Below, piece after piece: positions 12,314 to 31,743 of a stretch of DNA of 31,743 nt. Under the pieces are notes generated by a model. That model was not told the origin of the DNA, did not search any database, and was given only the letters and a program-made list of their open reading frames with translations. Position 1 is the stretch's first letter. Every line of letters starts with the position of its first letter. Origin of the DNA: a virus (lineage: Duplodnaviria > Caudoviricetes); the IMG/VR virus record IMGVR_UViG_3300005805_000290, positions 1-31,743 of that record, one strand, 5' to 3'. Both the position numbers and the translations under genes were made by a program.

Positions 12314-13105
12314 ATGATGCACAGATGTAATCAAGCCCTAATACTTGCGGCGGGTATGGGAAAAAGACTTAGTGAAGATAAGCCTAAATCACTCATAGAG
12401 TTTAATGGTAAGACCCTATTAGATAGAAAAATAGAAGTATTTAATAATAATGGTTTTGAAGAAATAATTATAGTTGTGGGATATAAAGCAGAAATGATTG
12501 AAGATGCTGTTAAAAAATATGACAATGTAACATTAATTTATAATTCAAACTATAAAGAAAGTCAAACTATGGAATCAATATCTGCAGCAGTTCCATACAT
12601 CAAATATTGCTGTGTACAAACAGAGGGAGATTTAACTTTTGACCCAATGGTTATTGATGAACTTCTGTTAAATTCTTCAAATACCATGGTGCATAGTGAA
12701 ATTAAAGAAACAAATTCTGTTTCTATACCACATTTTGTTAATGGTAGGTTAAACGGATTTAGAAGAGAAGTGGAATATAGAAGCGGAATACAACAACCAC
12801 CTAATTTTGTTGGACCCTCTCACTTTACAAAGAATATGCTAGAGTCCATGACTAAACATAATATTGATAGTGATTATAAGTTACTTTATGAAGAGGCTGT
12901 TGCAAAAGCGGTAGAATTAGATTCTATACCTCTTTCAATTTTATATTATCCTAAATTAAGATATTGGGATTTAAACAAGCAAGAAGATTTTGAAAAAGTA
13001 GAAAGTCTTATTAAAACGCTAGATGAGGAAGATTCTTTGACCAAAGGTCCCAATCATTTGGGTAATCAAAATCTTCTGTTTCATCATCCCATTCTACCCA
13101 ATTAA
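12314..13105 (+). CDS. licC: Phosphocholine cytidylyltransferase (LicC-like NTP transferase)
   Basis: ALILAAGMGKRL, PKSL, IVVGYK, LIYN..Y, EGDL; start at ATG 12314 just after TATAAT 12302-12307. Confidence 0.8.
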   Translation: MMHRCNQALILAAGMGKRLSEDKPKSLIEFNGKTLLDRKIEVFNNNGFEEIIIVVGYKAEMIEDAVKKYDNVTLIYNSNYKESQTMESISAAVPYIKYCCVQTEGDLTFDPMVIDELLLNSSNTMVHSEIKETNSVSIPHFVNGRLNGFRREVEYRSGIQQPPNFVGPSHFTKNMLESMTKHNIDSDYKLLYEEAVAKAVELDSIPLSILYYPKLRYWDLNKQEDFEKVESLIKTLDEEDSLTKGPNHLGNQNLLFHHPILPN

Positions 13106-13790
13106 AATTTTCTTTTAAATGAGGATCTTCTGTATCAAGTCCAGCCATTATTCTATAAGTCATTTTTGAAGACTCTTCCATTATCCAAGGGTAACCCATT
13201 TCTCCATTTTTATATTTTTCTACATATTCTTTTGTTAATTTTGAAGCAAGTTCAGCAGACTGTTTAAGTTTATTTATGTGGGTATGATTATAATACCAGG
13301 CAAACATTTCTCCATAAATTTTTTTAGTAATTTCAGAGTTCCTCCATCTTGCATAAAAATGCCAATCTTTTGATTGATTATTTATTAAATGTTTTATTAA
13401 TTCTTCTGTATAATATATGTCTCCATATAATTGAATAGTTATGCCACTTTCATTAGACATACCCTCTGTGCTTGAAAATTCATGATCTGGGTATAGAGAG
13501 TCTTTATCAAAAACTGTTTCAGCCCAATTGCATCCAGGAATTATATACGAGTCAACATTTCTTTTATTACAAGATACCCAAACGTTATCTGCATTGTTTT
13601 GTAACAAAAGTCTTTGAGTTCTATGTATAAGTGGTTCACCCTTTATAGGTATTAAGTGCTTAGGAACTCCTAAATAGTTGTTCCACCTATCTGGTTGATT
13701 TAATGGGTAAATTTCTTTATATATTTTTATATATTCGTCAATATTATCTAGATTTCTATCTCCAGCAAGTATTATAAACTTTTTATCCAT
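13011..13790 (-). CDS. Second nucleotidyltransferase-like protein (LicC/NTP_transf-like)
   Basis: IILAG, RW.NYLGVPKHLIPIKGEPLI.RT, LYGDIYY, TEDFDYP.D. Confidence 0.7.
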   Translation of the reverse strand: MDKKFIILAGDRNLDNIDEYIKIYKEIYPLNQPDRWNNYLGVPKHLIPIKGEPLIHRTQRLLLQNNADNVWVSCNKRNVDSYIIPGCNWAETVFDKDSLYPDHEFSSTEGMSNESGITIQLYGDIYYTEELIKHLINNQSKDWHFYARWRNSEITKKIYGEMFAWYYNHTHINKLKQSAELASKLTKEYVEKYKNGEMGYPWIMEESSKMTYRIMAGLDTEDPHLKENFNWVEWDDETEDFDYPNDWDLWSKNLPHLAF

Positions 13791-20173: not shown

Positions 20174-20566
20174 ATGCTAAGTAAGCACATTGGTGATGCC
20201 TTTGAAGACCTAGTCTTAAAGGATCTAGAAGAGCGTGGATTTCAATTCATCAGTCGTAATGTCTATATGGAGAATACTGGGTGTGAGGTAGACTTCCTTG
20301 CTCGTAATGAAAGCACCACCTGGCATGTCGAAGCCAAGGGTGGATACTATGGCAATAAGAAGCGACCAGGAGCCCAGAGAACAGACAATGTCAAGAAGGC
20401 CATAGCCAGTGCTACCCTGATTCGTTCTGAGTACCCAGAGGTCTATTTTGTAGCCTATTTTTCTGCATTGCCAAAGGCTGGTAGTTATTCATCAAAGATG
20501 ATAAATGCAGCATTAAGGCACGGTATATTTAGTGAAGTGGTATATTTATATCAAGGAGAATCATGA
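20174..20566 (+). CDS. PD-(D/E)xK endonuclease (restriction/Mrr/YraN-like fold)
   Basis: G.AFE..V, EVDF, VEAKGG. Confidence 0.75.
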   Translation: MLSKHIGDAFEDLVLKDLEERGFQFISRNVYMENTGCEVDFLARNESTTWHVEAKGGYYGNKKRPGAQRTDNVKKAIASATLIRSEYPEVYFVAYFSALPKAGSYSSKMINAALRHGIFSEVVYLYQGES

Positions 20567-20718
20567 TTGAATTAATACTATTATCTATAATCTTTCTTAT
20601 ATGGGGTATGAAAGGTCCAAAAGAACCAGACATGCTGTCTAACGGATGCTTGCCTTCTGGTCACAAATTTTCTAGTTATGGAATGTGTACGATATGTGGT
20701 GATTATGAAAAGGCATAA
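20563..20718 (+). CDS. 51-aa membrane-anchored Cys/His microprotein (not in ORF track)
   Basis: MIELILLSIIFLIWG...CLPSGH...CTIC; RBS AGGAG; ATGA overlap. Confidence 0.6.
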   Translation: MIELILLSIIFLIWGMKGPKEPDMLSNGCLPSGHKFSSYGMCTICGDYEKA

Positions 20719-20884
20719 AAAATCGGGGGTAGAAATAGAAGTACTATCCTCCCCTATAGACCTAATAATACATACTAAAGTACCAAGTAAATATATATTA
20801 TTGGATGAAGAAACAGGACAAATATATAGAGGAAATAATAATGGATCTTGGACAAGAATTGATAATGATGGCTATCTAAAATAG
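20705..20884 (+). CDS. Hypothetical protein
   Basis: MKRHKKSG...IHTKVPSKYILLDEETGQIY; last + strand gene before the convergence zone. Confidence 0.6.
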   Translation: MKRHKKSGVEIEVLSSPIDLIIHTKVPSKYILLDEETGQIYRGNNNGSWTRIDNDGYLK

Positions 20885-20921
20885 AACAATATTGTGCTAT
20901 ATATGATATAAGATATTATTA

Positions 20922-20974
20922 TAATGGATCAAATGGAGTAAAATGGAGGGAAATGGGATATGGGGCATTTGGGG
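20922..20974 (+). repeat. Imperfect 10-bp-period AAATGG purine-rich repeats
   Basis: ataatggatc aaatggagta aaatggaggg aaatgggata tggggcattt gggg. Confidence 0.6.
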
Positions 20975-21051
20975 CGGCCGTTCGTAATACATTTACGGGC
21001 ATTTTATTTTTATCTTCATAATCCTTTTTTATATATGCCCAAATTTTTGTG

Positions 21052-21080
21052 ATTATAGCCCATATAAATGATATTGTCAA
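21052..21080 (-). promoter_or_regulatory. Perfect consensus promoter with no substantial gene downstream
   Basis: TTGACA-17-TATAAT on the - strand, inside an imperfect inverted repeat (ATATGCCCA...TGGGCATAT, 21033-21121). Confidence 0.7.
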
Positions 21081-21195
21081 GTGTTTTTTGGTACAAAAAT
21101 TATGACAAATTATGGGCATATTTTTCCCTATTCGTAATACTTTTTAATAGATAATATATTGATTTTGCCCAATAATATATAGATAATATTATATT

Positions 21196-21747
21196 TTATA
21201 TTGAGTCATAATATATAGGTCCCATGCATGAAGGACTATATTGAATACTTGCTTCTACTGCTATTCTTAGTCTTTTATTTATATCTTTGTACCCCCGAGT
21301 TGTGTAAAGGGAACCGAAGGCGATCAGGCCCCCCGACCCAATAGCACCTTCGGTGATTTCATTCAATTGAAAATCGGTTGAGTCAAACTCGAATAAGCGG
21401 CCACGCACAGCGATCAAGGCCAGGACGCCGCCATCCTTGTCATCGGCGGGGGAAGTAGAAGGGGAATATAAATTAATAGCATTTTTAAAAGCAAGACAAA
21501 ACTTTGTTCTCATAAATCTAGTTAAATCTTTATTATGTATATTAATAGGATCTGGAAGATCTATAGAATGTAATAATTGTCCTAATCCAGTTTCTCCTGC
21601 ATATCCAATTAAATACTTTCCATTTCTTTGGATCTTTGGATCCATAATTGGAAGAATAATACTATCATCAGATGCCCCCGAATCCGCTGCCATATAGACT
21701 TTGCGGGGGGTAGAAAGATTATCCACTATACCTACTATACAAGTCAT
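21196..21747 (-). CDS. Ntn-hydrolase, HslV/proteasome-beta-like peptidase
   Basis: MTCIVG (Thr1 after Met removal), AADS, K33 equivalent in DPKI, GYAG, AIGSG. Confidence 0.78.
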   Translation of the reverse strand: MTCIVGIVDNLSTPRKVYMAADSGASDDSIILPIMDPKIQRNGKYLIGYAGETGLGQLLHSIDLPDPINIHNKDLTRFMRTKFCLAFKNAINLYSPSTSPADDKDGGVLALIAVRGRLFEFDSTDFQLNEITEGAIGSGGLIAFGSLYTTRGYKDINKRLRIAVEASIQYSPSCMGPIYYDSI

Positions 21748-21779
21748 TAATAATCCCTAATATAAATATACCTTGGACA

Positions 21780-21809
21780 ATAATAGCATATATCGTAATA
21801 CCCTGTCAA
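21780..21809 (-). promoter_or_regulatory. Promoter for the protease gene, with a TTACGA motif in the spacer
   Basis: TTGACA-18-TATTAT with extended TG. Confidence 0.6.
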
Positions 21810-21947
21810 TATGCCATATATGCATGTTCCATGCAAACTATAGGCAATTTCGTAATATCTTCGTAATATAGATATATTGACAAATATGGGAAAAGATGAT
21901 AGGAAAAAATTTAAATTCCTGGCCCAGGAGCCCAGGCTGCTGAGAGC

Positions 21948-22295
21948 CTAGGACCCCTTGGTCCAACCTAAATCTTCTGCATCATCTTCCGTTAGGCCTA
22001 GTTCGTCTAGTTCTACCTCACGGATCATTTCATCTATTGACTCAAAGAATTGATTAGGGTCATTACCAAAAATATCTCTAACCATATCTTCATATGTTTC
22101 CTCAATATGTAACTCACCAATACCATGAACACTTGGAACCATATCCATAACTAGTGCGTAGGCTAAAGGCACACCCATATCGTGTTGGGCAAAGAAGTCA
22201 TCGAACTGACCACTTCTTCTATACCTATGAGAGAAGTCACAAATAAGTTTTGCCTGCTCTTTAAGACGAGCCTGATTTCTATCTTTAGTAGCCAA
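21948..22295 (-). CDS. Hypothetical acidic protein
   Basis: 115 aa; HDMGVPLAY. Confidence 0.7.
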   Translation of the reverse strand: MATKDRNQARLKEQAKLICDFSHRYRRSGQFDDFFAQHDMGVPLAYALVMDMVPSVHGIGELHIEETYEDMVRDIFGNDPNQFFESIDEMIREVELDELGLTEDDAEDLGWTKGS

Positions 22296-22548
22296 TTATC
22301 TCACCCTCGCTAGTAATGCGTTCTTTGTATTCACTCGATGATACCATAAGTCGTTCTGGTATGTCAATACCTCTTCTATCAAGAGAATAGTTTATGCCGT
22401 CTGCAAAGTTCTTAGCAGTCGCTAGGATAGCCATATTCTCATCTGTAATATCATCTGGTATAGCAAACTTCCATTGGTTCTGAGTTATATGATTATTAGC
22501 AAATAAGTCAATAATCTTCTTTGATATTTTATTGCTTGATACAAACAT
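22285..22548 (-). CDS. Hypothetical protein
   Basis: 87 aa; RBS GAAAGG. Confidence 0.7.
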   Translation of the reverse strand: MFVSSNKISKKIIDLFANNHITQNQWKFAIPDDITDENMAILATAKNFADGINYSLDRRGIDIPERLMVSSSEYKERITSEGEIIGY

Positions 22549-22568
22549 TTATACCTTTCTCCAAGTCC

Positions 22569-22597
22569 ATTATATAGTCGGGGGGTCGTTTTGTCAA
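22569..22597 (-). promoter_or_regulatory. Perfect consensus promoter
   Basis: TTGACA-17-TATAAT. Confidence 0.8.
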
Positions 22598-22800
22598 TCG
22601 CCTGCTACTAGTACTACGTACTTGTCATCAGGGATAGATATTATCTTAGTTTCATAGTAGTTATCTAGGACCACCACATCAAACCCACTGTCAGTGGCCA
22701 TTAGATTGACTACCTCATAGACTTCGCCCTTAACCCTTATTAGATCCCCTTTTTCAAGGTAGTTAGGTAAGACGCTATCTATTACAATATATTCATCCAT
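22594..22800 (-). CDS. Small SH3/KOW-like beta protein
   Basis: LEKGDLIRVKGEVYEV; probable leaderless ATG 7 nt after TATAAT. Confidence 0.6.
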   Translation of the reverse strand: MDEYIVIDSVLPNYLEKGDLIRVKGEVYEVVNLMATDSGFDVVVLDNYYETKIISIPDDKYVVLVAGD

Positions 22801-22817
22801 GGTCAACATTATATATC

Positions 22818-23219
22818 CTATTCTTTATCTAGTTGTACTTCTATATCTAATAATTCATCATATGGTTTTGCTGTTACCATATACCCGATTCTGTTGACGA
22901 AACCCCAGTGATTAATAATGCACGTGGTGCCGTCTTCTTTATCTATGTAAGTCCAGATACGGTTTGGTTCTTCTTGGCCTACAGAAGCCACGAAGTCATA
23001 TTCAGGACCGTAGGTCTCAAACATGATACCTCCAGACCAGTTATTGAATGAAGCATTCTTATCCAAGTGATTGACCTGTGGTTTAAAGAAGTGCTCCCAC
23101 TCTTCCATGGTTAAGATAACCTTTCCATAGTTAGGTGAGTCTGGATTAATATCTGGGTCTAAGCAACTGCACAACTCATTGCCACAGAAGTCACAGCCTT
23201 CTTCGAATTCTTCACTCAC
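22818..23219 (-). CDS. Hypothetical phage protein with N-terminal CxxC..CxC
   Basis: FETYG.E, RIWT, GFVNRIGY; GTG start after GAGG. Confidence 0.7.
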   Translation of the reverse strand: MSEEFEEGCDFCGNELCSCLDPDINPDSPNYGKVILTMEEWEHFFKPQVNHLDKNASFNNWSGGIMFETYGPEYDFVASVGQEEPNRIWTYIDKEDGTTCIINHWGFVNRIGYMVTAKPYDELLDIEVQLDKE

Positions 23220-23460
23220 TGCCATCATCCTCAATGACAACGTTGACTGTGCATTCGTCTAAAGCCCCGTCAGAATATTGAACATGGTCCATATAGTTCA
23301 TATCCATATATTCTTGGATTGCTGTTTCTAACTCATCAGTATCATCAAAGTCAGTCATATCGTTAAATGCTGGATAGATATCTGCAATCTCTTCAGCAGA
23401 CAAACTTACAGTTGCCCACATCTGAAGATTGACTTCAACACTGTCTATGTACTTAGCCAT
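23212..23460 (-). CDS. Highly acidic small protein
   Basis: 82 aa, D/E rich. Confidence 0.7.
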   Translation of the reverse strand: MAKYIDSVEVNLQMWATVSLSAEEIADIYPAFNDMTDFDDTDELETAIQEYMDMNYMDHVQYSDGALDECTVNVVIEDDGSE

Positions 23461-23710
23461 TCTGTTTTCTCTCCCAGTTTAGTCGGTGCCATTGAATATC
23501 ATATAGCAAGTTGGACACTTCCACAAGTGCGTCCATTCTTGCACACATAACATCCAATTCTTCTTTGGTCCAAGTAGGCATATCCATTTGCCATGAAAGA
23601 TCAGCCATAAGGACTTTTAATCTACCAGATAATATTTCGTCTGTAGATATATTGTATTTGAAGTAAGCCTCTAATTGTTTTAGTTCTTTATCTTCTATTT
23701 CTTCTACCAT
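23453..23710 (-). CDS. Hypothetical helical protein
   Basis: MVEEIEDK...; coupled to its neighbours. Confidence 0.65.
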   Translation of the reverse strand: MVEEIEDKELKQLEAYFKYNISTDEILSGRLKVLMADLSWQMDMPTWTKEELDVMCARMDALVEVSNLLYDIQWHRLNWERKQNG

Positions 23711-23943
23711 GCTTTTACCCAACCTGTCGGAGGTTCTGGAGTTGTATCTTCTTCCATAGCCTTAATAGTAGTTTCATTTGGAATGTGGTTATCCCAATGA
23801 GAGTCTACTTCACCTTCAACAACTTTGCAACCCTCTGGCATATCTTCACTACCAAAGTATGCGTCATAGGCTTTGTATGCTGTTTCTTCATCTGGTGCTT
23901 CTATGTGATACCAAGTACCAGATAGTACATTAAACTTTGGCAT
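23704..23943 (-). CDS. Hypothetical acidic protein
   Basis: 79 aa; IEAPDEETA. Confidence 0.7.
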   Translation of the reverse strand: MPKFNVLSGTWYHIEAPDEETAYKAYDAYFGSEDMPEGCKVVEGEVDSHWDNHIPNETTIKAMEEDTTPEPPTGWVKAW

Positions 23944-24029
23944 TAGTAACCTGCCTTACATTCTGAGTTGTGACCAACTGTAAAGTTGCAACCACATACC
24001 CAATGATGACAATTGCATTTGTCTGACAT
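23943..24029 (-). CDS. 28-aa Cys/His-rich peptide (not in ORF track)
   Basis: MSDKCNCHHWVCGCNFTVGHNSECKAGY; RBS GGAGG; TAATG coupling on both sides. Confidence 0.65.
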   Translation of the reverse strand: MSDKCNCHHWVCGCNFTVGHNSECKAGY

Positions 24030-24172
24030 TATTCCTCCACCATAATCATATAGGCTAGTACTTCTAGACTATTACAATCCACACACTTACAGTTAACCAC
24101 ATGACCCTCTACTTTGTCAAGCATGTTCGTAAGTATTTTTTCAAGGGGGTATTCAAGATCAAAATCAAGCAT
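24029..24172 (-). CDS. Small Zn-binding-like protein
   Basis: MLDFD...HVVNCKCVDC. Confidence 0.6.
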   Translation of the reverse strand: MLDFDLEYPLEKILTNMLDKVEGHVVNCKCVDCNSLEVLAYMIMVEE

Positions 24173-24335
24173 AATGTCCCTCTCTAACATAAATAGAATA
24201 AGCCTGGGCAAATCTATCCCATTGTCTTAATCTATCACAATTAATACAATAAAACAATCCTGGAATATCTGAGCATTCCCATTTACAATTGTCACCTTGT
24301 TTGGTATCATACCAACAAAGACTAGATCCCTGCAT
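24165..24335 (-). CDS. Small Cys-rich protein
   Basis: MQGSSLCWY...C..C..CINC; RBS AAGGAG. Confidence 0.6.
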   Translation of the reverse strand: MQGSSLCWYDTKQGDNCKWECSDIPGLFYCINCDRLRQWDRFAQAYSIYVREGHYA

Positions 24336-24588
24336 CTGTGAATCTCCTTTCAATCTCTTCTAACAGATCAGTTTTCCACTGTCTATGAATTCCATCTACA
24401 TCAAAGTCCCAAAACTCTAAGGCTTGGTCATGAACAAATCTGGTAACGTCCATCCATGCAGTTTCACCCTTAAAAGTTTTAGCATGGCGACCATTTAGTC
24501 TAACTTTATAATCAGCCCAATAATCTTCGGGGTTAACAAAAACTTCTAATCCATTTTTACTATATATGTTTACATACTTACTATTCAT
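24322..24588 (-). CDS. Hypothetical protein
   Basis: MNSKYV...FKGETAWMD; RBS AAGGTGG; the longer ORF-track start overlaps a tRNA. Confidence 0.7.
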   Translation of the reverse strand: MNSKYVNIYSKNGLEVFVNPEDYWADYKVRLNGRHAKTFKGETAWMDVTRFVHDQALEFWDFDVDGIHRQWKTDLLEEIERRFTDAGI

Positions 24589-24616
24589 ATACCACCTTAA
24601 TCTAGTCGTCTTAATC

Positions 24617-24645
24617 ATATTAATGGTTATGGGCAAAATTGTCAA
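24617..24645 (-). promoter_or_regulatory. SigA-type promoter
   Basis: TTGACA-17-TAATAT. Confidence 0.7.
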
Positions 24646-24650
24646 TGGGC

Positions 24651-24677
24651 TCGTAAAGGCATATCGTAAAGGCATAT
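24651..24677 (+). repeat. Tandem 13-bp repeat TCGTAAAGGCATA
   Basis: Two exact copies. Confidence 0.8.
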
Positions 24678-24692
24678 AGGACTGTATTAACC

Positions 24693-24725
24693 TGTGGATA
24701 ACCTGGGGATAGAAATTTAAATTTT
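24693..24725 (-). promoter_or_regulatory. DnaA-box pair plus AT pseudo-palindrome (element 1)
   Basis: TGTGGATAA-CC-TGGGGATAG/AAATTTAAATTTT. Confidence 0.85.
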
Positions 24726-24728
24726 CGG

Positions 24729-24802
24729 CGATCCTGAAGAGACTTGAACTCTCGACCTCCACCGTGACAGGGTGGCGTTCTAACCAACTGAACTACAGGA
24801 CC
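24729..24802 (-). tRNA. trnD: tRNA-Asp(GTC)
   Basis: GGTCCTGTAGTTCAGTTGGTTAGAACGCCACCCTGTCACGGTGGAGGTCGAGAGTTCAAGTCTCTTCAGGATCG; full cloverleaf followed by CCG rather than CCA. Confidence 0.95.
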
Positions 24803-24807
24803 AGGTA

Positions 24808-24834
24808 GGGCAGTTTTAAGTGTTGCCCAGCACT
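24808..24834 (-). ncRNA. Compact H-type pseudoknot motif, copy 1
   Basis: AGUG-CUGGGCAA-CACU-UAAAAC-UGCCC. Confidence 0.55.
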
Positions 24835-24839
24835 CTATT

Positions 24840-25853
24840 TTATTTTACTCCAGCAAGTTGTTTTACTTGACGGAATAGTTTATTCTTGTTTGCATTACGC
24901 ATGGCGTCAAAACCACTTGCGTTTGCAAACTTTATCTCTTGACCTTTTTCACCTTTACGAGTCATACCAAAATAGTCTAGGCGTTCAGTTAAGGCATTGA
25001 ATACACCCCATGCTGTGCCTTTGATATTTTGTTGAGTAGGTGAGTCAAAATAGATATCATTAACTAGTGAGATGTTGTTATCCCATTTTGTTAATTGTGC
25101 TTTTTTATCCTTTTCTGGCTTTGGATAAATAGTTGTTAAGATGTCATAGAATTGTTTATCTGTGACACTTGTTTCGAATAGTGCTTTTGCTTCTGCTTCG
25201 AAGTTGTCCATGTATTGAAAGGTAAGCCCTAGTGCTTCTCTGGCTACTTGTAACTTGCCGTCAATAGATTGTGTGTGTCTCAACTTGAAAGATTGCTTTA
25301 CAGCACCTAGTGCAAGGTTGAGAGTATTTTGACATACTACACGCACAGGAGTAATGCTAGCCTGTAATGAAACAGAGCCATCATGTGAAGTGTGAACTAG
25401 TAAATATGTTTTTGTAGTATCGTTAGCACCTTGTGGGTCTAAGGTAAATTCTCTAGGAATTACTAAAGAGCCGAATACTAAACGACCACCTTTGATTGAG
25501 CCAGCAGATTCCCAACTTGCTCCACCATCTAATAAGTTATCGCCAAATTCGAACAATTGTTCATTTTGTACGACCTTGTATTTATTGCCAACGACACCTA
25601 AGATATCTTTGCCGTTACCAAATGGATTTGTACGAGTAACAAAATAGTTTGTTTTATCGTTATTGTATCCAATAGGATTTTCTACTTCTAACAATTCGAT
25701 ATCCCAATTAGATAGTTTTGCACTATCTAACATTGTAGTTGTAGTTATGTGTTCATCTTTATCAAATAACACATTAGCAAGACCATGCCAAGCAGGTGCA
25801 CCTCTAAGTGCAAATGCCACTTCACCATCTTGCATTTCTAAGGCGTGTGCCAT
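24840..25853 (-). CDS. DUF932 family phage/plasmid-like protein
   Basis: PAWHGL, Y.VVQN, SAGSIKGG, SHDGS, TPVRVVCQNTL, RHT, GTAWG..NA.TE..D. Confidence 0.9.
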   Translation of the reverse strand: MAHALEMQDGEVAFALRGAPAWHGLANVLFDKDEHITTTTMLDSAKLSNWDIELLEVENPIGYNNDKTNYFVTRTNPFGNGKDILGVVGNKYKVVQNEQLFEFGDNLLDGGASWESAGSIKGGRLVFGSLVIPREFTLDPQGANDTTKTYLLVHTSHDGSVSLQASITPVRVVCQNTLNLALGAVKQSFKLRHTQSIDGKLQVAREALGLTFQYMDNFEAEAKALFETSVTDKQFYDILTTIYPKPEKDKKAQLTKWDNNISLVNDIYFDSPTQQNIKGTAWGVFNALTERLDYFGMTRKGEKGQEIKFANASGFDAMRNANKNKLFRQVKQLAGVK

Positions 25854-25883
25854 AGTTTATTTCCTTTCGTAGTAGATGACACA

Positions 25884-25912
25884 ATCTTACAGGATAACCC
25901 AGACAAATGCAA
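25884..25912 (-). promoter_or_regulatory. Promoter with TTGTC spacer motif
   Basis: TTGCAT-ttgtctgggttatcctg-TAAGAT. Confidence 0.7.
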
Positions 25913-25938
25913 GCCCCCTCGTAAACCGTGCTAAATTC

Positions 25939-25982
25939 TGTGGATAACCTGGGGACATCCTGTGGATAAAAATCTAAATTTT
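25939..25982 (-). promoter_or_regulatory. DnaA-box triplet plus AT pseudo-palindrome (element 2)
   Basis: TGTGGATAA-CC-TGGGGACAT-CC-TGTGGATAA/AAATCTAAATTTT. Confidence 0.85.
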
Positions 25983-25992
25983 TTTAGGATCC

Positions 25993-26023
25993 ACCGCTGC
26001 AGATCGTTTAAACCTGCAACGGT
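25993..26023 (-). terminator. Hairpin after 26048-26485 (terminator or processing site)
   Basis: ACCGTTGCAG/CTGCAGCGGT stem; no clear U-tract. Confidence 0.45.
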
Positions 26024-26047
26024 CGACACTACTCTACCAACTAGAGT

Positions 26048-26485
26048 TTACCAACTGGATGAATAGATAAAATCCCATTCTTTAGGGAATTCTTTCAAAA
26101 CCCTTTCTAATTGGTCTATAGTATCTTGTAAGTCTCCAAAATAGTATTCATTATATTCATATGAACCAAAAAAGAATCCCTCTTGTGTTGGTAATAAATT
26201 AACAGCCTCTTCTTTTTGCATTAACACTATCTTGCAAGTATCAATTAATAATTGTAGTTGGTCTCGTGATACTGAATATTCTCTACAGTCATCCTTACCA
26301 CCTTGGACGTGTTTAACGAACCATGCATGAATTTGGTTGGATTTTCTCCAATAAGCAACGTTGACTTCTAGTGTTGCAGTATCTAAGGCAAAGGGTGCTG
26401 CTTTAACCAATGTGTTATAAAGTTCAGGCCTAAAGTAATCTTTGCTTGAAAATTGTCTTGCATTCAAGTACATATCTAATCCCAT
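26048..26485 (-). CDS. Conserved hypothetical phage protein
   Basis: MGLDMYL, YWRKSNQIHAWF, LPTQEGFFFG, Y.SSW motifs. Confidence 0.8.
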   Translation of the reverse strand: MGLDMYLNARQFSSKDYFRPELYNTLVKAAPFALDTATLEVNVAYWRKSNQIHAWFVKHVQGGKDDCREYSVSRDQLQLLIDTCKIVLMQKEEAVNLLPTQEGFFFGSYEYNEYYFGDLQDTIDQLERVLKEFPKEWDFIYSSSW

Positions 26486-26512
26486 TTATTTTCCTTTTTT
26501 AGTAGGGTGTTG

Positions 26513-26542
26513 TGAGCAGTTTAACAACATGCTCAGGTTGTT
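26513..26542 (-). ncRNA. Compact H-type pseudoknot motif, copy 2
   Basis: (AA)CAAC-CUGAGCAU-GUUG-UUAAAC-UGCUC(A); also overlaps a possible TTGACA-18-TAAACT promoter. Confidence 0.5.
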
Positions 26543-26586
26543 GTCAAGTGCCTAGTGACTACTCATTTCGTATAGGCACTCGAACT

Positions 26587-27039
26587 CTATAAGTATCTAC
26601 TTACAGATTGGTAAGTTGAGGTTGAGACTACTTCCTCATCTGACATAGATAGCATGCGAATTGCATTTGTTATTTCTGCAACTCTATCTTCATAGCCACC
26701 AATGTAGTTGCGACCATAACCAGTTGAACTGAAAGGGTCTTTTGGTGCTTCTGGTTCATCTGGTAGTTTGGTTCTGTCAATCTCTACTTCTACTTCAACC
26801 CTGAGATTAGGGTCTTGTGTCCAATTTCTAACCAAGACAGATTTTTTGTTAGATGAGGTTATGTCAAAGTTTGCAAAGGCAATCTGAGCACACTTCTCTT
26901 TCCACTCTTTTATATCTGTTTCATATTTGCTAAACGCTAAATCATAGTTCATTTTTGCGTTGTGCATTTCTTCTAGTTTTACTTCTAATGCTTTGATAAC
27001 CTTAACTCTGGCTATCTTTACATTTATTGCTTTTCCCAT
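26587..27039 (-). CDS. Hypothetical coiled-coil protein
   Basis: MGKAINVK... after RBS AAGGA. Confidence 0.75.
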   Translation of the reverse strand: MGKAINVKIARVKVIKALEVKLEEMHNAKMNYDLAFSKYETDIKEWKEKCAQIAFANFDITSSNKKSVLVRNWTQDPNLRVEVEVEIDRTKLPDEPEAPKDPFSSTGYGRNYIGGYEDRVAEITNAIRMLSMSDEEVVSTSTYQSVSRYL

Positions 27040-27073
27040 TTGTTTTCCTTTGTTGGTAGGGTTTGTTAGAATA

Positions 27074-27102
27074 AACATAGCATAATACTAGGCATAGGTC
27101 AA
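27074..27102 (-). promoter_or_regulatory. SigA-type promoter
   Basis: TTGACC-17-TATGTT with extended TG. Confidence 0.65.
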
Positions 27103-27124
27103 GAAACCTCATAACCTTAATAAG

Positions 27125-27140
27125 TGTGATATTGGTCACA
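27125..27140. promoter_or_regulatory. CRP/GlxR-type box
   Basis: TGTGA-TATTGG-TCACA. Confidence 0.75.
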
Positions 27141-27146
27141 ATAACC

Positions 27147-27179
27147 TGTGGATAACTTGGGGATAAGAATTTGGATTTT
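27147..27179 (-). promoter_or_regulatory. DnaA-box pair plus AT pseudo-palindrome (element 3)
   Basis: TGTGGATAA-CT-TGGGGATAA/GAATTTGGATTTT. Confidence 0.85.
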
Positions 27180-27197
27180 TGCGGGGGTATTTAGGAT

Positions 27198-27344
27198 CTA
27201 TCTTCCATCTATAAATCTTGCACTATCATTTTCTTCTTCCCATATAGACTTATTATTTATGGCTTCTATATAACCAACAATACAGCCTACTATTGGAAGA
27301 AATAAGAAACAAAATAAAAGAATTAGCGTTGTTCCGTATATCAT
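27198..27344 (-). CDS. 48-aa single-TM protein (not in ORF track)
   Basis: MIYGTTLILLFCFLFLPIVGCIVGYIE...; ATGA coupling. Confidence 0.6.
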   Translation of the reverse strand: MIYGTTLILLFCFLFLPIVGCIVGYIEAINNKSIWEEENDSARFIDGR

Positions 27345-28069
27345 TTTTTACTCGCAGAGAATAGTATATTATTCCTTCCTACTACACATTGACTACATTT
27401 TACACATGCAGAACCACCTTTGTCAATAAGAGGAATTTTCTTATTATTTTCTGGACATGGAACACCTGTCTTATTAACTAGAGATAGTAATTGTTCCTTA
27501 CCCATAGCGAATGTGTCAGCAAGATATGCTAATTTTATTCCATGGTCATTAGATAGTATCTTAGCATTATCAACATTATCACTATCTGTTGAATAATATA
27601 AAGATAGGTTAGGAATATTCTTTAACATTAAAGCAGCAGACATAACTCTTGTATATACCCAGAATTTTATGTCTTGATTATTTATTATGACATATTGCCA
27701 TGCCCTTGTATATGTATCATTAAAGAAATCGCCGTCCCAGTGAATACGGAATAATTTTTCTGCACCTCTTTTATCACAATCTTTTCTAAAGTCATTTATC
27801 ATATTTTCTAATAAATCTACCATAGTAGGTTCATCAGCGTCTTTCAATAATTCCCAGTTATGCAATAGATTAGCCTTGACAGCCTTGTATAGTTTTTCTA
27901 ACTTACCTGCATAGCAGACTTTCTCACATATGGATGTAGCACTAGGGCATGAATAATTTTTTCCAGCAGGTAGACCGAATGTGTTTTGTATTAAACTACC
28001 ATTACCAGCATTATTAACTAGGTTAGTAACTTTTCTATCGTGTGAGCGTTTTAACTTATTCATTTTCAT
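27341..28069 (-). CDS. GP88-like protein (radical-SAM-related Cys-rich phage protein)
   Basis: FGLPAG..SCP.A...C...CYA, FRIHWDGDF, FWVYTR, C-terminal CP..C..C..C. Confidence 0.75.
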   Translation of the reverse strand: MKMNKLKRSHDRKVTNLVNNAGNGSLIQNTFGLPAGKNYSCPSATSICEKVCYAGKLEKLYKAVKANLLHNWELLKDADEPTMVDLLENMINDFRKDCDKRGAEKLFRIHWDGDFFNDTYTRAWQYVIINNQDIKFWVYTRVMSAALMLKNIPNLSLYYSTDSDNVDNAKILSNDHGIKLAYLADTFAMGKEQLLSLVNKTGVPCPENNKKIPLIDKGGSACVKCSQCVVGRNNILFSASKK

Positions 28070-28211
28070 CCTTTAAGTAGTCTTTCCATATCTTAGCATT
28101 AGACAATCTTTTTTGTCTATCCTTAACCTTATTTTTATGTATGCCACTAGCCCCTGAGCGTCTTAAACCTTGCACATGGGCTACTTTTCTATCCTTATAT
28201 GTGTTACTCAT
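28056..28211 (-). CDS. 51-aa basic microprotein (not in ORF track)
   Basis: MSNTYKDRKVAHVQGLRRSGASGIHKNK...; leaderless start. Confidence 0.65.
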   Translation of the reverse strand: MSNTYKDRKVAHVQGLRRSGASGIHKNKVKDRQKRLSNAKIWKDYLKDENE

Positions 28212-28217
28212 AAAATC

Positions 28218-28246
28218 ACATTATCATAAACCACCGACAAAATCAA
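28218..28246 (-). promoter_or_regulatory. Promoter with TTGTC spacer motif
   Basis: TTGATT-ttgtcggtggtttatga-TAATGT. Confidence 0.65.
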
Positions 28247-28255
28247 GGGTGGGGC

Positions 28256-28288
28256 TGTGGATAACCTGGGGATAAGAATTTGGATTTT
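28256..28288 (-). promoter_or_regulatory. DnaA-box pair plus AT pseudo-palindrome (element 4)
   Basis: TGTGGATAA-CC-TGGGGATAA/GAATTTGGATTTT. Confidence 0.85.
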
Positions 28289-28411
28289 TGATCGCAGTTG
28301 GATGTAGGTTGGAATCCAGGATGATTACACAGTTCAAACCAACCTACACCACAATGTAGTGCTCCCGACTCAGGGAAAATGAATTAAACCTAAGTCGGGA
28401 ACGATTAGTTT

Positions 28412-28588
28412 CTAAAGAGAAACTGAAACTACCTTAAACTCTGGTTGGATTGTTGTCCAGCGTTCTTTACCTCGAACATCTAGACGAACACGCACCGAGC
28501 CAGATGGGTTCTGAACAATTTCCTTAATTGTTCCTTTTACGCCACTCTTTTGAGTCTTGTATTCTTGACCAATCGTTAGAATAGTCAT
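28412..28588 (-). CDS. Small SH3-like basic protein
   Basis: MTILTIGQEYKTQKSGVKGTI...RWTT; RBS GAAAGGA. Confidence 0.7.
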   Translation of the reverse strand: MTILTIGQEYKTQKSGVKGTIKEIVQNPSGSVRVRLDVRGKERWTTIQPEFKVVSVSL

Positions 28589-28615
28589 TTGCTTCCTTTC
28601 GTTGTTGTTAATACC

Positions 28616-28644
28616 AATATATAACATGGGTCTGACAAATGCAA
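28616..28644 (-). promoter_or_regulatory. Promoter with TTGTC spacer motif
   Basis: TTGCAT-ttgtcagacccatgtta-TATATT. Confidence 0.65.
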
Positions 28645-28655
28645 GCATATTTCCC

Positions 28656-28671
28656 TGTGATTTACATCACA
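28656..28671. promoter_or_regulatory. CRP/GlxR-type box
   Basis: TGTGA-TTTACA-TCACA. Confidence 0.75.
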
Positions 28672-28694
28672 CCGTCATAAATCAGACATTTTGC

Positions 28695-28727
28695 TGTGGA
28701 TAACCTGGGGATAAAAATTTGGATTTC
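28695..28727 (-). promoter_or_regulatory. DnaA-box pair plus AT pseudo-palindrome (element 5)
   Basis: TGTGGATAA-CC-TGGGGATAA/AAATTTGGATTTC. Confidence 0.85.
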
Positions 28728-28741
28728 TGGATCCAGGGATT

Positions 28742-29011
28742 TTATTTATCCTCATGTTTAGTAGTTGCTAATTCAATTAAAGTGCTATTCTCTAATTCTG
28801 TTAAGAATAACATTTGCATATTCATTAGAAATAATTTTCTGGCATCTTTATTATCTACCATTTGTTCCCACATTTCATCTGTTTCAATCCAAGACTTTAG
28901 TGTGTTCACAATAAAATTGCGTTCTTCTGCAATCTCATCTATTAAATCATTTTCTAATTGTTTATCAAATACTTCATTAACCATTTTATGTATTGGCTTT
29001 TCTTTAGGCAC
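28742..29011 (-). CDS. Hypothetical protein
   Basis: 89 aa; GTG start after GGAG. Confidence 0.65.
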   Translation of the reverse strand: MPKEKPIHKMVNEVFDKQLENDLIDEIAEERNFIVNTLKSWIETDEMWEQMVDNKDARKLFLMNMQMLFLTELENSTLIELATTKHEDK

Positions 29012-29192
29012 TTTTCACTCCCGATAGTAGTAGGTCTATATTTCTAACCATTTTGTCACAATGCTCTGACAATCTCATTATTTCTTCATCATAGGTTGTT
29101 TCACTATAAGTTGCAATCTCTTGTAGTTGATAACCAGATGTTTTTAGTTTGCCTTGAATTGTTCTTAGTAGTTCTACCCAATGTGCCTGCAT
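29004..29192 (-). CDS. Hypothetical protein
   Basis: 62 aa; RBS AAGGA. Confidence 0.65.
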   Translation of the reverse strand: MQAHWVELLRTIQGKLKTSGYQLQEIATYSETTYDEEIMRLSEHCDKMVRNIDLLLSGVKSA

Positions 29193-29299
29193 TATTCCTT
29201 ACCCTCACAATCTGGACACACAACACATCCGTCTGGATATATGTGTCCTCCGTCTTCATCATAGTTTATTTCATCATTACAAATTATGCAAGTAGTCAT
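29192..29299 (-). CDS. 35-aa Zn-ribbon microprotein (not in ORF track)
   Basis: MTTCIICNDEINYDEDGGHIYPDGCVVCPDCEGKE; TAATG coupling. Confidence 0.65.
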   Translation of the reverse strand: MTTCIICNDEINYDEDGGHIYPDGCVVCPDCEGKE

Positions 29300-29397
29300 T
29301 AGTAGGATATACAATCGTGTCCGTCTAACAATTCACTTGCTTCTAGTTCATCAAATATGTCGAACTTTTTGTTACACTCTCCACATGTTGCTATCAT
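29299..29397 (-). CDS. 32-aa Zn-finger-like microprotein (not in ORF track)
   Basis: MIATCGECNKKFDIFDELEASELLDGHDCISY. Confidence 0.65.
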   Translation of the reverse strand: MIATCGECNKKFDIFDELEASELLDGHDCISY

Positions 29398-29639
29398 TTT
29401 ACCCAGCCCTCTTGTTCTGCTTGTTCTCTTTTAAGTAGTAAGGACTCTGCAACTTTTCTTGCTAAGTTCCATGCACCCTCACCTCTAACATTATATACAT
29501 CAGCCCCGTCAAGAATTACACTAGCCCATGAGCCGTCTTTACTTTCAAGAGTCCACAATGTTTCATCTTCATATATTTTTTGCATATCACCAAATTGTGT
29601 AATAGTGCCTGCATACCATAGTTGTGTTGAATTACTCAT
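29394..29639 (-). CDS. Hypothetical protein
   Basis: 81 aa; RGEGAW resembles FKGETAW of 24322-24588. Confidence 0.7.
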   Translation of the reverse strand: MSNSTQLWYAGTITQFGDMQKIYEDETLWTLESKDGSWASVILDGADVYNVRGEGAWNLARKVAESLLLKREQAEQEGWVK

Positions 29640-29800
29640 TATTTTACCTCACTTAGTTTTTGGTTAAGTTTATCACGATAGCGTTCTACTTTTACATAGA
29701 CACTAGGGTGATGAATTCTTGACTCACATTTATGACATAGCCAATGTATTCCAACTTTAGTGCATACTACACAACTTTGTAAGTTGATTATATTATTCAT
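29639..29800 (-). CDS. 53-aa Zn-ribbon microprotein (not in ORF track)
   Basis: MNNIINLQSCVVCTKVGIHWLCHKCESR... Confidence 0.6.
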   Translation of the reverse strand: MNNIINLQSCVVCTKVGIHWLCHKCESRIHHPSVYVKVERYRDKLNQKLSEVK

Positions 29801-29939
29801 TTATTTTTTCCTTTTCTTTTGATAATTCATAGTCTAGCCCACATGGCAGACAAAGAAACCAATCTTTATCCGACACATGCACAATTTCATATTCATCACA
29901 GAATAGGCATTTGATACCTTTCCATTTATTTTCTAACAT
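29793..29939 (-). CDS. 48-aa Zn-ribbon microprotein (not in ORF track)
   Basis: MLENKWKGIKCLFC...WFLCLPCGLDY. Confidence 0.65.
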   Translation of the reverse strand: MLENKWKGIKCLFCDEYEIVHVSDKDWFLCLPCGLDYELSKEKEKINE

Positions 29940-30061
29940 TAGTAACCACACTTAGCCATAGCACAATCGTAGCAGAATACCTCATCACTAAGATAATCGG
30001 GGGTATTCATTTCAATGTCAATTTCACAATCCCAACATTTTGCAATATATATAGTTTTCAT
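29939..30061 (-). CDS. 40-aa Zn-ribbon microprotein (not in ORF track)
   Basis: MKTIYIAKCWDCEIDI...FCYDCAMAKCGY; RBS GAAAGG. Confidence 0.7.
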   Translation of the reverse strand: MKTIYIAKCWDCEIDIEMNTPDYLSDEVFCYDCAMAKCGY

Positions 30062-30189
30062 TATTTATTACCTTTCATTTCATTTTGTAGTGCTAACCAC
30101 AATTCTAATCTAACCATATCAGAAGCCTCTGACAAATCTGTAACGGACACGCCATTTTCGTCCATATCTATTATTTCTATATAACCCAT
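30061..30189 (-). CDS. 42-aa acidic microprotein (not in ORF track)
   Basis: MGYIEIIDMDENGVSVTDLSEASDMVRLELWLALQNEMKGNK; RBS AGGA. Confidence 0.6.
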   Translation of the reverse strand: MGYIEIIDMDENGVSVTDLSEASDMVRLELWLALQNEMKGNK

Positions 30190-30221
30190 TTTTATATCCT
30201 AACTTTTTATCTTATATAAAA

Positions 30222-30250
30222 ATCCTAGCATAGGGGTCTGACAATATCCA
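30222..30250 (-). promoter_or_regulatory. Leftward promoter of the divergence zone
   Basis: TGGATA-ttgtcagacccctatgc-TAGGAT. Confidence 0.65.
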
Positions 30251-30306
30251 CTCATAAAACGGCGTGTCTAAAAAAAGTGTAACGCAGTCGGGCGTGTCGT
30301 GATCCT

Positions 30307-30339
30307 TGTGTATATCCTGTGGATAAAAATCCAAATTTT
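30307..30339 (-). promoter_or_regulatory. DnaA-box pair plus AT pseudo-palindrome (element 6)
   Basis: TGTGTATAT-CC-TGTGGATAA/AAATCCAAATTTT. Confidence 0.8.
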
Positions 30340-30361
30340 TGTCGGTGGCTCATGATAGATT
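30339..30361 (+). promoter_or_regulatory. Rightward promoter with TTGTC motif
   Basis: ttgtcggtggctcatga-TAGATT. Confidence 0.6.
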
Positions 30362-30384
30362 CTAATTAAATGAAAGGATATAAA

Positions 30385-30447
30385 ATGGTAAATTGCTCAT
30401 GCACATCAAACTACATGTGTCGTTCATGTGCCAGAGGTTATAACTAA
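30385..30447 (+). CDS. 20-aa Cys-rich peptide (not in ORF track)
   Basis: MVNCSCTSNYMCRSCARGYN; RBS GAAAGGA and its own promoter. Confidence 0.6.
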   Translation: MVNCSCTSNYMCRSCARGYN

Positions 30448-30488
30448 CCTTTGGTAACAGACAAATAGGACACAAAATCTAAATTTTT

Positions 30489-30504
30489 TGTGATAAACGT
30501 CACA
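30489..30504. promoter_or_regulatory. CRP/GlxR-type box
   Basis: TGTGA-TAAACG-TCACA. Confidence 0.75.
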
Positions 30505-30543
30505 AAATAAAGTGTAACGCAAACACGGCGTGTCGCCCCTAAA

Positions 30544-30566
30544 TTGTCAGACCCCCCATTTATGAT
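30544..30566 (+). promoter_or_regulatory. Rightward promoter with TTGTC motif and poor -35
   Basis: ttgtcagaccccccatt-TATGAT. Confidence 0.65.
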
Positions 30567-30599
30567 TAAAGTATAGATAGAAATTAAGGAGGTATCCAG

Positions 30600-30701
30600 A
30601 TGAGAGGATACGTTGAAGCCCAAGAGGCTTGGGAGGCTGAACTCCCAGAGGGTGTAGAGCCTGATTACGACCAGTTCTACAAAATCTTTAGAGGCGAATA
30701 G
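30600..30701 (+). CDS. 33-aa acidic peptide (not in ORF track)
   Basis: MRGYVEAQEAWEAELPEGVEPDYDQFYKIFRGE; perfect RBS AAGGAGGT. Confidence 0.7.
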   Translation: MRGYVEAQEAWEAELPEGVEPDYDQFYKIFRGE

Positions 30702-30713
30702 CCACTAGATTTG

Positions 30714-30777
30714 GTCTCTGGATGAGCCTAGGCAAATAAGCCCAATCGGGATGAGCCCTAGCAAATAAGCCAGAGAC
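30714..30777 (+). ncRNA. Two-fold pseudo-symmetric structured element
   Basis: GTCTCTGG-[ATGAGCCTAGGCAAATAAG]-CCCAATCGGG-[ATGAGCCCTAGCAAATAAG]-CCAGAGAC. Confidence 0.5.
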
Positions 30778-30798
30778 ACGCAAGACCCCCTCCCAAAT

Positions 30799-30821
30799 CT
30801 GTCGGGGGTATATGATAGGTT
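30799..30821 (+). promoter_or_regulatory. Rightward promoter with TGTC motif
   Basis: ctgtcgggggtatatga-TAGGTT. Confidence 0.6.
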
Positions 30822-30848
30822 TAAGTTATTACTAGAAAGGTAAGAAAA

Positions 30849-31010
30849 ATGGATAAAGATACAATGCTAGAGTTAATTCACAGCGAACTCAATGCCGAAT
30901 ATGGTGATAGTATGTTAGCAGACTACGCACTACTAGGCACATTAAAATCATTAGTTACTGATGAACAATTAGTTCAGTTAGTTAAAATGAGAGGTTGGAT
31001 AAATAGATGA
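30849..31010 (+). CDS. 53-aa protein (not in ORF track)
   Basis: MDKDTMLELIHSELNAEYG...; RBS GAAAGG. Confidence 0.65.
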   Translation: MDKDTMLELIHSELNAEYGDSMLADYALLGTLKSLVTDEQLVQLVKMRGWINR

Positions 31011-31120
31011 CAACTATTGCATGCTATAAATGCGAAATAGATATTCCAATATCTACCCCTATACACGACAATAAATACGCACTATGTTACGATTGTGCTA
31101 TGGATAAGGCAGGTTACTAA
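31007..31120 (+). CDS. 37-aa Zn-ribbon microprotein, paralogue of 29939-30061
   Basis: MTTIACYKCEIDI...LCYDCAMDKAGY. Confidence 0.7.
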   Translation: MTTIACYKCEIDIPISTPIHDNKYALCYDCAMDKAGY

Positions 31121-31273
31121 ATGAATTACAAACTATGGCTAATAGGTCACAATGTTAAACACTTTATTGAAATGCGTTGGCTAGATGTTAAGTATGCCAA
31201 TGATGAGACATGGCTAGCAATACTACTAGTTAGCACATGGATATTCTGTGCATATGTAGCGAGTGTGAACTAA
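31121..31273 (+). CDS. 50-aa protein with C-terminal TM helix (not in ORF track)
   Basis: MNYKLWLIGH...WLAILLVSTWIFCAYVASVN. Confidence 0.55.
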   Translation: MNYKLWLIGHNVKHFIEMRWLDVKYANDETWLAILLVSTWIFCAYVASVN

Positions 31274-31551
31274 TGAAACTAACGCAACGAGGTAAGTATG
31301 TTATGGTCATCATCTACACGATAGTGATGACGCTACTACTAGTCGGGGTATATGATAAGTTTATAAGTGGTCAATCATGTATAGATAAATACACAGCCGA
31401 TATATTAGCAACACAATTTCTATATAGCGAGGGTATAGATAGAGACCATGCTATTACTGCTATATATAACAATGGTGGTTGGGTAGAAAATGAATACGAA
31501 GAACTAGAAGAAGTTGTATTCCCTTGCCTTAAGAATGAGGGACTAGTCTAG
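31273..31551 (+). CDS. Membrane-anchored hypothetical protein
   Basis: MKLTQRGKYV followed by a TM helix; TAATG coupling. Confidence 0.7.
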   Translation: MKLTQRGKYVMVIIYTIVMTLLLVGVYDKFISGQSCIDKYTADILATQFLYSEGIDRDHAITAIYNNGGWVENEYEELEEVVFPCLKNEGLV

Positions 31552-31556
31552 TTATG

Positions 31557-31591
31557 TGCTCACTAATTAATTTTGGTGAGCATTTTTATTT
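31557..31591 (+). terminator. Intrinsic terminator
   Basis: TGCTCACTAA-TTAATT-TTGGTGAGCA followed by TTTTTATTT. Confidence 0.75.
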
Positions 31592-31691
31592 TACGCATCG
31601 TACAAGAAAGACAAAAATTCAGATTTTCTTAAAAATGGGTTTACAATATTTCTACGGATCTATCAAGAGACACGCTCTCTGAGAATCGTAA

Positions 31692-31726
31692 AACCCCTTG
31701 TTCTGCGAGCAGGGGGTTCTTTATTT
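31692..31726 (+). terminator. Intrinsic terminator-like hairpin
   Basis: AACCCCTTGTTC-TGC-GAGCAGGGGGTT followed by CTTTATTT. Confidence 0.6.
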
Positions 31727-31743
31727 GACAAGTTGTTTTAACC

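Follow-up and report, generated by a model that had tools for sequence, protein, structure and literature searches.

The window analysed here, the whole stretch of 31,743 nucleotides from IMG/VR virus record IMGVR_UViG_3300005805_000290, is a contig of an uncultured phage, with 33.5% GC, encoding WhiB, SSB, Hsp20, thioredoxin, an HslV-type peptidase, DUF932 and GP88. Near-identical DNA was present in lake and river sequencing runs, and none of the runs listed was an RNA run. Between 24693 and 30326 the window carries seven copies of the perfect DnaA box TGTGGATAA, all on the + strand (24693, 25939, 25961, 27147, 28256, 28695 and 30318) and all satisfying the DnaA consensus TT(A/T)TNCACA. No perfect box was found on the other strand of the window or in positions 1-24692. 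Markov models gave an expectation of 0.25-0.40 perfect boxes per strand, and seven boxes against 0.55 correspond to a Poisson P of ~2e-6. The recount thus agreed with the original prediction, which had listed the same seven boxes on one strand and estimated fewer than one per window; a similar density along the whole sequence was not seen, all seven lying in the early region. With up to one mismatch allowed, 23 boxes were counted in the whole window against 13.8 +/- 3.9 expected. This is borderline, and the signal therefore resides in the perfect boxes.

Every perfect box of the window lies outside genes, and in all six units a perfect box is accompanied at an 11-bp period by a variant partner with one to three mismatches. 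Both points had been predicted and were recovered, as was a variable distance between box and -10 hexamer (~31-78 bp). With a repeat finder the true repeat unit was shown to be 35-37 bp long, in six copies 73-100% alike, and to consist of box, 2 bp, box and AT tail. The tail RAATYYRRATTT, a near-palindrome at a fixed position in the unit, abuts the final box in 6 of 6 units and occurs without a box at two further sites (30475 and 31615). The six clusters described before are present, but because they share this repeat with its fixed tail they are copies of a single unit, not clusters that arose independently. Altogether 13 boxes, perfect and variant, lie within 5.6 kb, two or three per site (Table 1). 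The units are direct repeats only, distributed over six short spacers; conserved inverted repeats within a single long untranslated region do not occur among them. The complete unit including the tail gave no match in viral contigs. Box end plus tail gave 55 single matches there, four with a box-like start and none in arrays, and these were read as chance.

A separate observation concerns GATC. In 24400-31743 it is depleted (1.1 per kb vs 3.3 elsewhere in the window), and seven of the eight copies are no farther than 60 bp from a perfect box (P ~1e-6). Related phages have 5.3 copies per kb close to boxes, 3.2 ahead of promoters without a box and 0.85 elsewhere.

For each of the six units a leftward promoter is predicted, and the unit is upstream of its -35 position by ~8-55 bp. 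This includes unit 6, formerly described as an exception to the direction of its neighbouring promoter; a leftward promoter at 30243 places it upstream too. The early promoters at 28218-30821 fit the PafBC consensus tGTCgg-N10-tA-N3-T, described on bacterial chromosomes (PMC8635444, in part; "in part" marks sources available as excerpts), and several copies additionally carry a -35-like hexamer. Eight strict matches were found in the window against 0.37 expected, seven of them at 28.2-30.8 kb. Early promoters of this consensus also occur in the related phage records G001 (11) and G003 (12). A generic promoter scan (61 vs 48.5 expected) was not above chance and was not used as support. Furthermore, the window contains three perfect palindromes, presumed CRP-type sites, against 0.03 expected; two of them stand between a unit and its promoter. 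Around the divergent promoters, at 30146-30534, there are four copies of GACACGCC / GGCGTGTC, which resemble the WhiA motif and are candidates only.

Table 1 Features of the window, in order of position
Feature	Position	Strand	Remarks
Inferred long terminal repeat	21000..31743	.	left boundary ~20.2-21.9 kb, right boundary beyond window
Predicted sigma-A promoter	24617..24645	-	served by unit 1
Unit 1	24693..24724	+	perfect 24693-24701, variant 24704-24712, tail 24713-24724; touches 3' end of tRNA-Asp
tRNA-Asp(GTC)	24727..24802	-	
DUF932 / TIGR03299 gene	24840..25853	-	~50% identity to gene in terminal repeat of Streptomyces BE phages
PafBC-type promoter of DUF932	25884..25905	-	near-consensus, loose pattern; served by unit 2
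Unit 2	25939..25981	+	perfect 25939-25947, variant 25950-25958, perfect 25961-25969, tail 25970-25981; upstream of DUF932 promoter
Predicted sigma-A promoter	27074..27102	-	served by unit 3
Presumed CRP-type palindrome	27125..27140	.	perfect; between unit 3 and its promoter
Unit 3	27147..27178	+	perfect 27147-27155, variant 27158-27166, tail 27167-27178
GP88-family gene	27341..28069	-	
PafBC-type promoter	28218..28239	-	served by unit 4; consensus of PMC8635444 (in part)
Unit 4	28256..28287	+	perfect 28256-28264, variant 28267-28275, tail 28276-28287; ~8 bp from -35 of PafBC-type promoter
PafBC-type promoter	28616..28637	-	served by unit 5
Presumed CRP-type palindrome	28656..28671	.	perfect; between unit 5 and its promoter
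Unit 5	28695..28726	+	perfect 28695-28703, variant 28706-28714, tail 28715-28726
PafBC-type promoter, leftward	30222..30243	-	served by unit 6
Unit 6	30307..30338	+	variant 30307-30315, perfect 30318-30326, tail 30327-30338; between divergent PafBC-type promoters
PafBC-type promoter, rightward	30340..30361	+	directly after tail of unit 6
Presumed CRP-type palindrome	30489..30504	.	perfect; beside lone AT tail 30475-30486, without DnaA box

For the comparison with related phages, 91 loci with a DUF932 relative (12 plus the best 79 of at least 475 confirmed) were reduced to 66. The 6 kb upstream of DUF932 in these relatives hold 68 perfect boxes in 200.8 kb against ~3.5 expected, and the DUF932 gene itself holds none in 65.5 kb. 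Recurrent spacings are 11, 12 and 14 bp for tandem boxes and 23 bp for inverted ones. The DUF932 promoter slot is occupied by boxes in 29 of 60 relatives, as 20 inverted pairs, four tandem pairs as in the window, three reversed tandem pairs and two single boxes; in others it holds CRP-type or other regulator motifs instead. Among the 20 homologous inverted pairs, for which the box cores served as search anchor, the A/T-degenerate position of the consensus varies most in each box, and the 6-nt spacer is variable. Selection in the relatives follows the DnaA consensus and not the flanks. The reverse, spacers that keep the flanks and lose the 9-mers, was not seen: the spacer drifts and the box keeps its consensus. 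Confinement to the early region, as originally described, also held. All window boxes lie past 24.6 kb, and in whole records eight of the ten boxes of G001 and seven of the eight of G002 are in or beside this region. For the 66 relatives and the window together, 32 of 52 intergenic perfect boxes lie no more than 130 nt upstream of a PafBC-type promoter against 12.9 expected (2.5-fold), and none on or just past a promoter core against 6.4 expected, a count that leaves out 32 boxes inside crude calls of open reading frames (ORFs). The AT tail follows a box in none of its 12 occurrences in relatives. Hence, the composite of box and tail is specific to the lineage of the window.

Some relatives show further arrangements. 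In the closest ones (L201, L204, L006, L205 and L213) a CTTAA...AAATCGGAC motif and a hairpin replace the boxes upstream of DUF932, and more distant relatives have TGTCC direct repeats of response-regulator type there. G002 carries six perfect boxes at 27269-27404 (L284:370-505), five of them spaced with a period of 21 bp; this stretch is AT-rich, contains no gene and lies ~5.5 kb beyond the start of DUF932.

An indirect link to the host protein is given by the exact pair CTGTGGATAACYTGGGGATAA, a 21-mer found at 66 places in the species-genome collection. In four actinobacterial metagenome-assembled genomes (MAGs) it adjoins dnaA, just before the gene in L147 (a Nanopelagicaceae bin) and L181 and just after it in L161 and L157. 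With this pair at dnaA loci, the consensus match and the consensus-following variation in relatives, the boxes of the window look like true DnaA sites at the level of sequence, and their earlier identification as such stands. An actinobacterial host is supported. Five candidate-host MAGs (0.9-1.3 Mb, incomplete) contain 8, 11, 6, 18 and 8 perfect boxes, and the window has seven in 5.6 kb. Adjacent WYL genes, as expected of PafB and PafC, were found in two of four MAGs. Lsr2 was sought in four incomplete MAGs and in G001 without a match, and the idea of Lsr2 counter-silencing was dropped. DnaA domain IV was found in none of five related phage records, so a phage-encoded DnaA as the binder of the boxes was rejected, too; all five encode their own DnaB-type helicase. 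Regarding DnaA-trios, no run of three trio-like triplets was detected 3' of the seven window boxes or of 95 boxes of relatives. The longest trio-like run was 1-2 in the window and at most 2 in relatives, with 3 and 2 in the host controls. The AT tail is placed on the side of the boxes opposite to the trio-like run of these controls.

The units lie within a region which is likely a long terminal repeat starting near 21 kb, as judged by a step in depth, strand-switch synteny and a TCGTAA cluster. Terminal repeats of ~11 kb are known from Streptomyces cluster BE (Stanwilliamsviridae) (PMC5764925), where a DUF932 homologue occurs twice, 1.2-2.6 kb from the left end. The BE phage Jay2Jay has a strand switch that is mirrored by the one of the window at 20.9 kb. 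Seven of 15 TCGTAA words on the + strand fall in 20254-21861, and six stand in the first 700 bp of Jay2Jay and likewise of Karimac. Contig depth, a blunt measure for placing a repeat boundary, approximately doubles rightward in four of eight runs from three studies (X1, possibly the source run, 21 to 45-54, X2 5 to 8-9, X5 9 to 21, X8 5-8 to 11-15); the step was weak in X4 and not clear in X6 and X7, and X3 had too little cover. We attribute a further break in the depth of X1 at 16.66 kb, where a tRNA-Arg lies, to the assembly rather than to the end of the repeat. The TCGTAA cluster is a possible site of a phage protein, and CGTAA is also found midway in the inverted box pairs of relatives. 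Apart from DUF932 and GP88, family searches gave no useful family name for the early genes. Two arms of a 36-nt inverted repeat (29939-29974 and 31085-31120, 86% complementary, 1110 nt apart) span a strand switch. A block with sugar epimerase, glycosyltransferase, choline kinase and nucleotidyltransferase genes, two of them on the opposite strand, is located at 7180-13790. AGCT, CCGG, CGCG and GCGC are absent from 1-31743, which suggests strong restriction avoidance.

Box arrays were also found at the ends of other phages. Jay2Jay and Karimac, cultured Streptomyces phages of different genera, have an inverted perfect pair which starts exactly 93 bp before the right repeat (122001-122031, L282:402-431, and 119227-119259, L283:328-360, respectively); within their terminal repeats no perfect box was found. 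The T7-like Klebsiella phage Kp7 (L281:63-222) has five perfect boxes, all co-oriented, together with variant boxes in each of its short terminal repeats, and Seahorse has a box array in its last 100 bp. The junction elements of six relatives form an inverted and often also a tandem pair and resemble the promoter-slot pairs. The inferred junction of the window is without a perfect box, and its units lie inward of the inferred end by ~3-9 kb. One exact 20-mer is estimated to occur in ~1100 viral stretches, mostly of unrelated phages among the matches listed (at least 120). In 26 of 80 such stretches with flanks a terminase gene was among the two nearest ORFs on either side; this tally, made by hand and without a control on viral contigs biased to hallmark genes, is a lead only. 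Regarding the repeat of Jay2Jay itself, its left end recurs at 122094, which gives a length of 11,438 bp, and PMC5764925 lists 10,778 bp.

Our preferred, tentative reading is that the units provide an optional DnaA input which would tune early transcription to the level of free DnaA in the host. Host DnaA would bind the paired boxes cooperatively upstream of early promoters used by the host polymerase. As in oriC arrays, the weak box, at a distance of 2 bp, may receive DnaA recruited by the strong box, and DnaA occupancy could alter the activity of the promoter. Within a swappable cassette which also holds CRP-type sites and PafBC-type promoters, DnaA would be one of the inputs and an optional one, and some titration of host DnaA might result as a side effect. 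The boxes are intergenic, confined to the terminal or early region and upstream of promoters. Cooperative loading of DnaA at oriC is allowed by a layout in which a weak box comes 2 bp after a strong one (PMC4451416, in part), and DnaA activates or represses promoters according to its level and nucleotide state (PMC8203912, in part). Lineages differ in the geometry of the boxes in the promoter slot, or have motifs of other regulators there; this suggests that geometry matters less than occupancy by DnaA. The variable distance to the -10 hexamer had formerly been taken to argue against promoter activation. It is correct that there is no fixed geometry, but the argument was too strong, as promoters have an excess of boxes upstream and none on their cores.

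Several results weigh against this reading. The fixed orientation and helical phase to the promoter of a classical activator were not found. In the 66 relatives 33 boxes are oriented as in the window and 35 opposite, and phasing to the promoter is weak for DnaA boxes (R 0.33, n 34, and R 0.45, n 24, with kin counted as independent), whereas it is clear for CRP sites (R 0.52, n 72). The unit is not a classical fixed-phase activator. The co-orientation and helical phasing reported before apply to the window but are not conserved in relatives, where several spacings occur; both are features of the unit of this lineage, and the co-orientation is explained most simply by copying of one unit along co-directional cassettes. 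Furthermore, about half of the early promoters of the window have no unit. Of the 12 closest relatives, 10 lack a box in the DUF932 promoter slot; no perfect box is present in six of the 22 relatives whose sequence extends 5.5 kb upstream, and the complete record G003 has a single one, outside the early region. Twenty of the 52 intergenic boxes are not near a strict PafBC-type promoter, and the proximity to promoters is partly forced, nearly all spacers of the early region preceding one. The boxes of Kp7, of T5 and of the BE junctions are not in promoter cassettes.

A DNA-only sink, in which the boxes draw DnaA away from oriC and the dnaA promoter, is possible but less probable than a promoter input. 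The boxes would enter with the first DNA, twice per virion if they belong to a terminal repeat, would multiply with phage replication and could stand in any non-coding space where they do not block a promoter. A sink predicts that orientation, spacing and number are free and that promoter cores are avoided, all of which was seen, and other phages have dense arrays away from promoters. DnaA is titrated by box clusters in bacteria (PMC4451416, in part), and 6-18 perfect boxes per candidate-host MAG compare with seven in 5.6 kb here, although these MAGs are incomplete and candidate hosts only. However, each pair stands by itself, and in B. subtilis boxes need local density to be bound stably (PMC2533591, in part); many relatives carry only 0-2 perfect boxes, and neither the enrichment upstream of promoters nor the slot shared with CRP sites is explained by a sink. 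The original prediction had proposed three functions. A sensor fits best among them and a sponge is numerically possible, but distributed DnaA-dependent origins, which would start the first round of phage replication with host proteins, are very improbable. Such origins would agree with the tandem strong and weak boxes at an 11-bp period in six units, which is the commonest arrangement at bacterial unwinding modules (PMC8287927, in part), and boxes of this kind adjoin a primase gene at a few unrelated viral loci. The lack of trios, as defined in PMC8287927 (in part), the tail on the opposite side and the helicase encoded by all five related records speak against them.

It is unlikely that the units are a signal of the genome end or of DNA entry, or scattered copies of a junction signal, where bound DnaA would tether the DNA, pause its transfer or help to regenerate the repeat. 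The pairs 93 bp before the repeat in Jay2Jay and Karimac, the terminal arrays of Kp7 and Seahorse and the junction pairs of the six relatives point in this direction, and T5-like phages keep box pairs in the repeat in the same strand sense as the window (10.1101/866236, in part). In the window, however, the units occupy six spacers well inside the inferred end with a junction free of perfect boxes, the repeats of Jay2Jay and Karimac are themselves without perfect boxes, and the T5 model is an in silico proposal (10.1101/866236, in part). Still more doubtful is that the units have nothing to do with DnaA and that the 35-bp unit serves as operator, for a phage protein or for some other protein of the host, or that gene conversion has spread it as a neutral repeat. 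The near-palindromic tail at its fixed position, twice alone in the window and never behind a box in relatives, and the dispensability of the boxes in close relatives would suit this explanation. It is opposed by the excess of perfect boxes in the early regions of relatives, the variation that tracks the DnaA consensus and the identical pair at host dnaA loci; a DnaA-type binding domain was not found in the five related phage records.

If DnaA acts at these promoters, DNA alone allows a lytic phage to read or drain the replication initiator of its hosts, abundant freshwater actinobacteria, with cAMP and DNA damage as additional inputs, and this would bear on the role of the T5 boxes. A wider reading, which we consider possible but rather doubtful, is that many unrelated phages have converged on DnaA-box arrays as a protein-free takeover device. 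The arrays would capture host DnaA on entry, stall host initiation and wire early genes to DnaA, cAMP and DNA damage, in the terminal, first-entering DNA of T5-like, T7-like, BE-like and cos phages and of the ~1100 viral stretches with the 20-mer. If this is true, one virion brings as many perfect boxes as the whole chromosome in a host group with tiny genomes. Jay2Jay, Karimac, Kp7 and Seahorse are cultured phages with boxes at mapped ends, and the question is therefore testable now.

In a literature search with most subscription papers outside its scope, no paper was found on DnaA boxes in early promoters or terminal repeats of actinophages, or on the use of PafBC promoters by phages. By its sequence, the window is a real, unusually box-rich example, and box pairs in phage repeats have already been published for T5. 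There they lie in the region of first-step transfer and injection stop, according to an in silico model (Davison, 10.1101/866236; also PMC13250531; both in part). As in the window, T5-like phages, large and lytic, have pairs of consensus and variant boxes, including TTATCCCCA, in non-coding DNA of a long terminal repeat, which in the window is a likely one. The T5-like pairs are inverted repeats 3 bp apart in two fixed regions and are conserved across these phages (10.1101/866236, in part), whereas those of the window are 2 bp apart, occupy six spacers upstream of promoters, have an AT tail, are optional in close relatives and belong to a phage of an actinobacterial host.

The repeats of Streptomyces BE phages are ~11 kb long and, like the probable repeat of the window, have small leftward genes including DUF932 and a TCGTAA cluster at the left end; PMC5764925 makes no mention of DnaA boxes. 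The two records checked, Jay2Jay and Karimac, have their DnaA-box pair near the junction, and in contrast to the window their repeats hold neither perfect boxes nor PafBC-type promoters. The clusters of E. coli datA and of B. subtilis are also high-affinity boxes off the origin, which could titrate DnaA or regulate a neighbouring promoter (PMC4451416 and PMC2533591, both in part). Here the boxes are phage-borne, with two or three per site, and no site of a bending protein was identified. Sites of another cell-cycle regulator of the host, CtrA, occur in intergenic terminal-repeat DNA of phiCbK-like and other alphaproteobacterial phages, where they bind CtrA, control phage genes and are proposed to read the state of the host; the distribution of DnaA sites in those phages is not skewed (PMC9437464, in part). 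The protein and the host phylum differ from ours, and binding and regulation were shown there (PMC9437464, in part), whereas the sites of the window are predicted.

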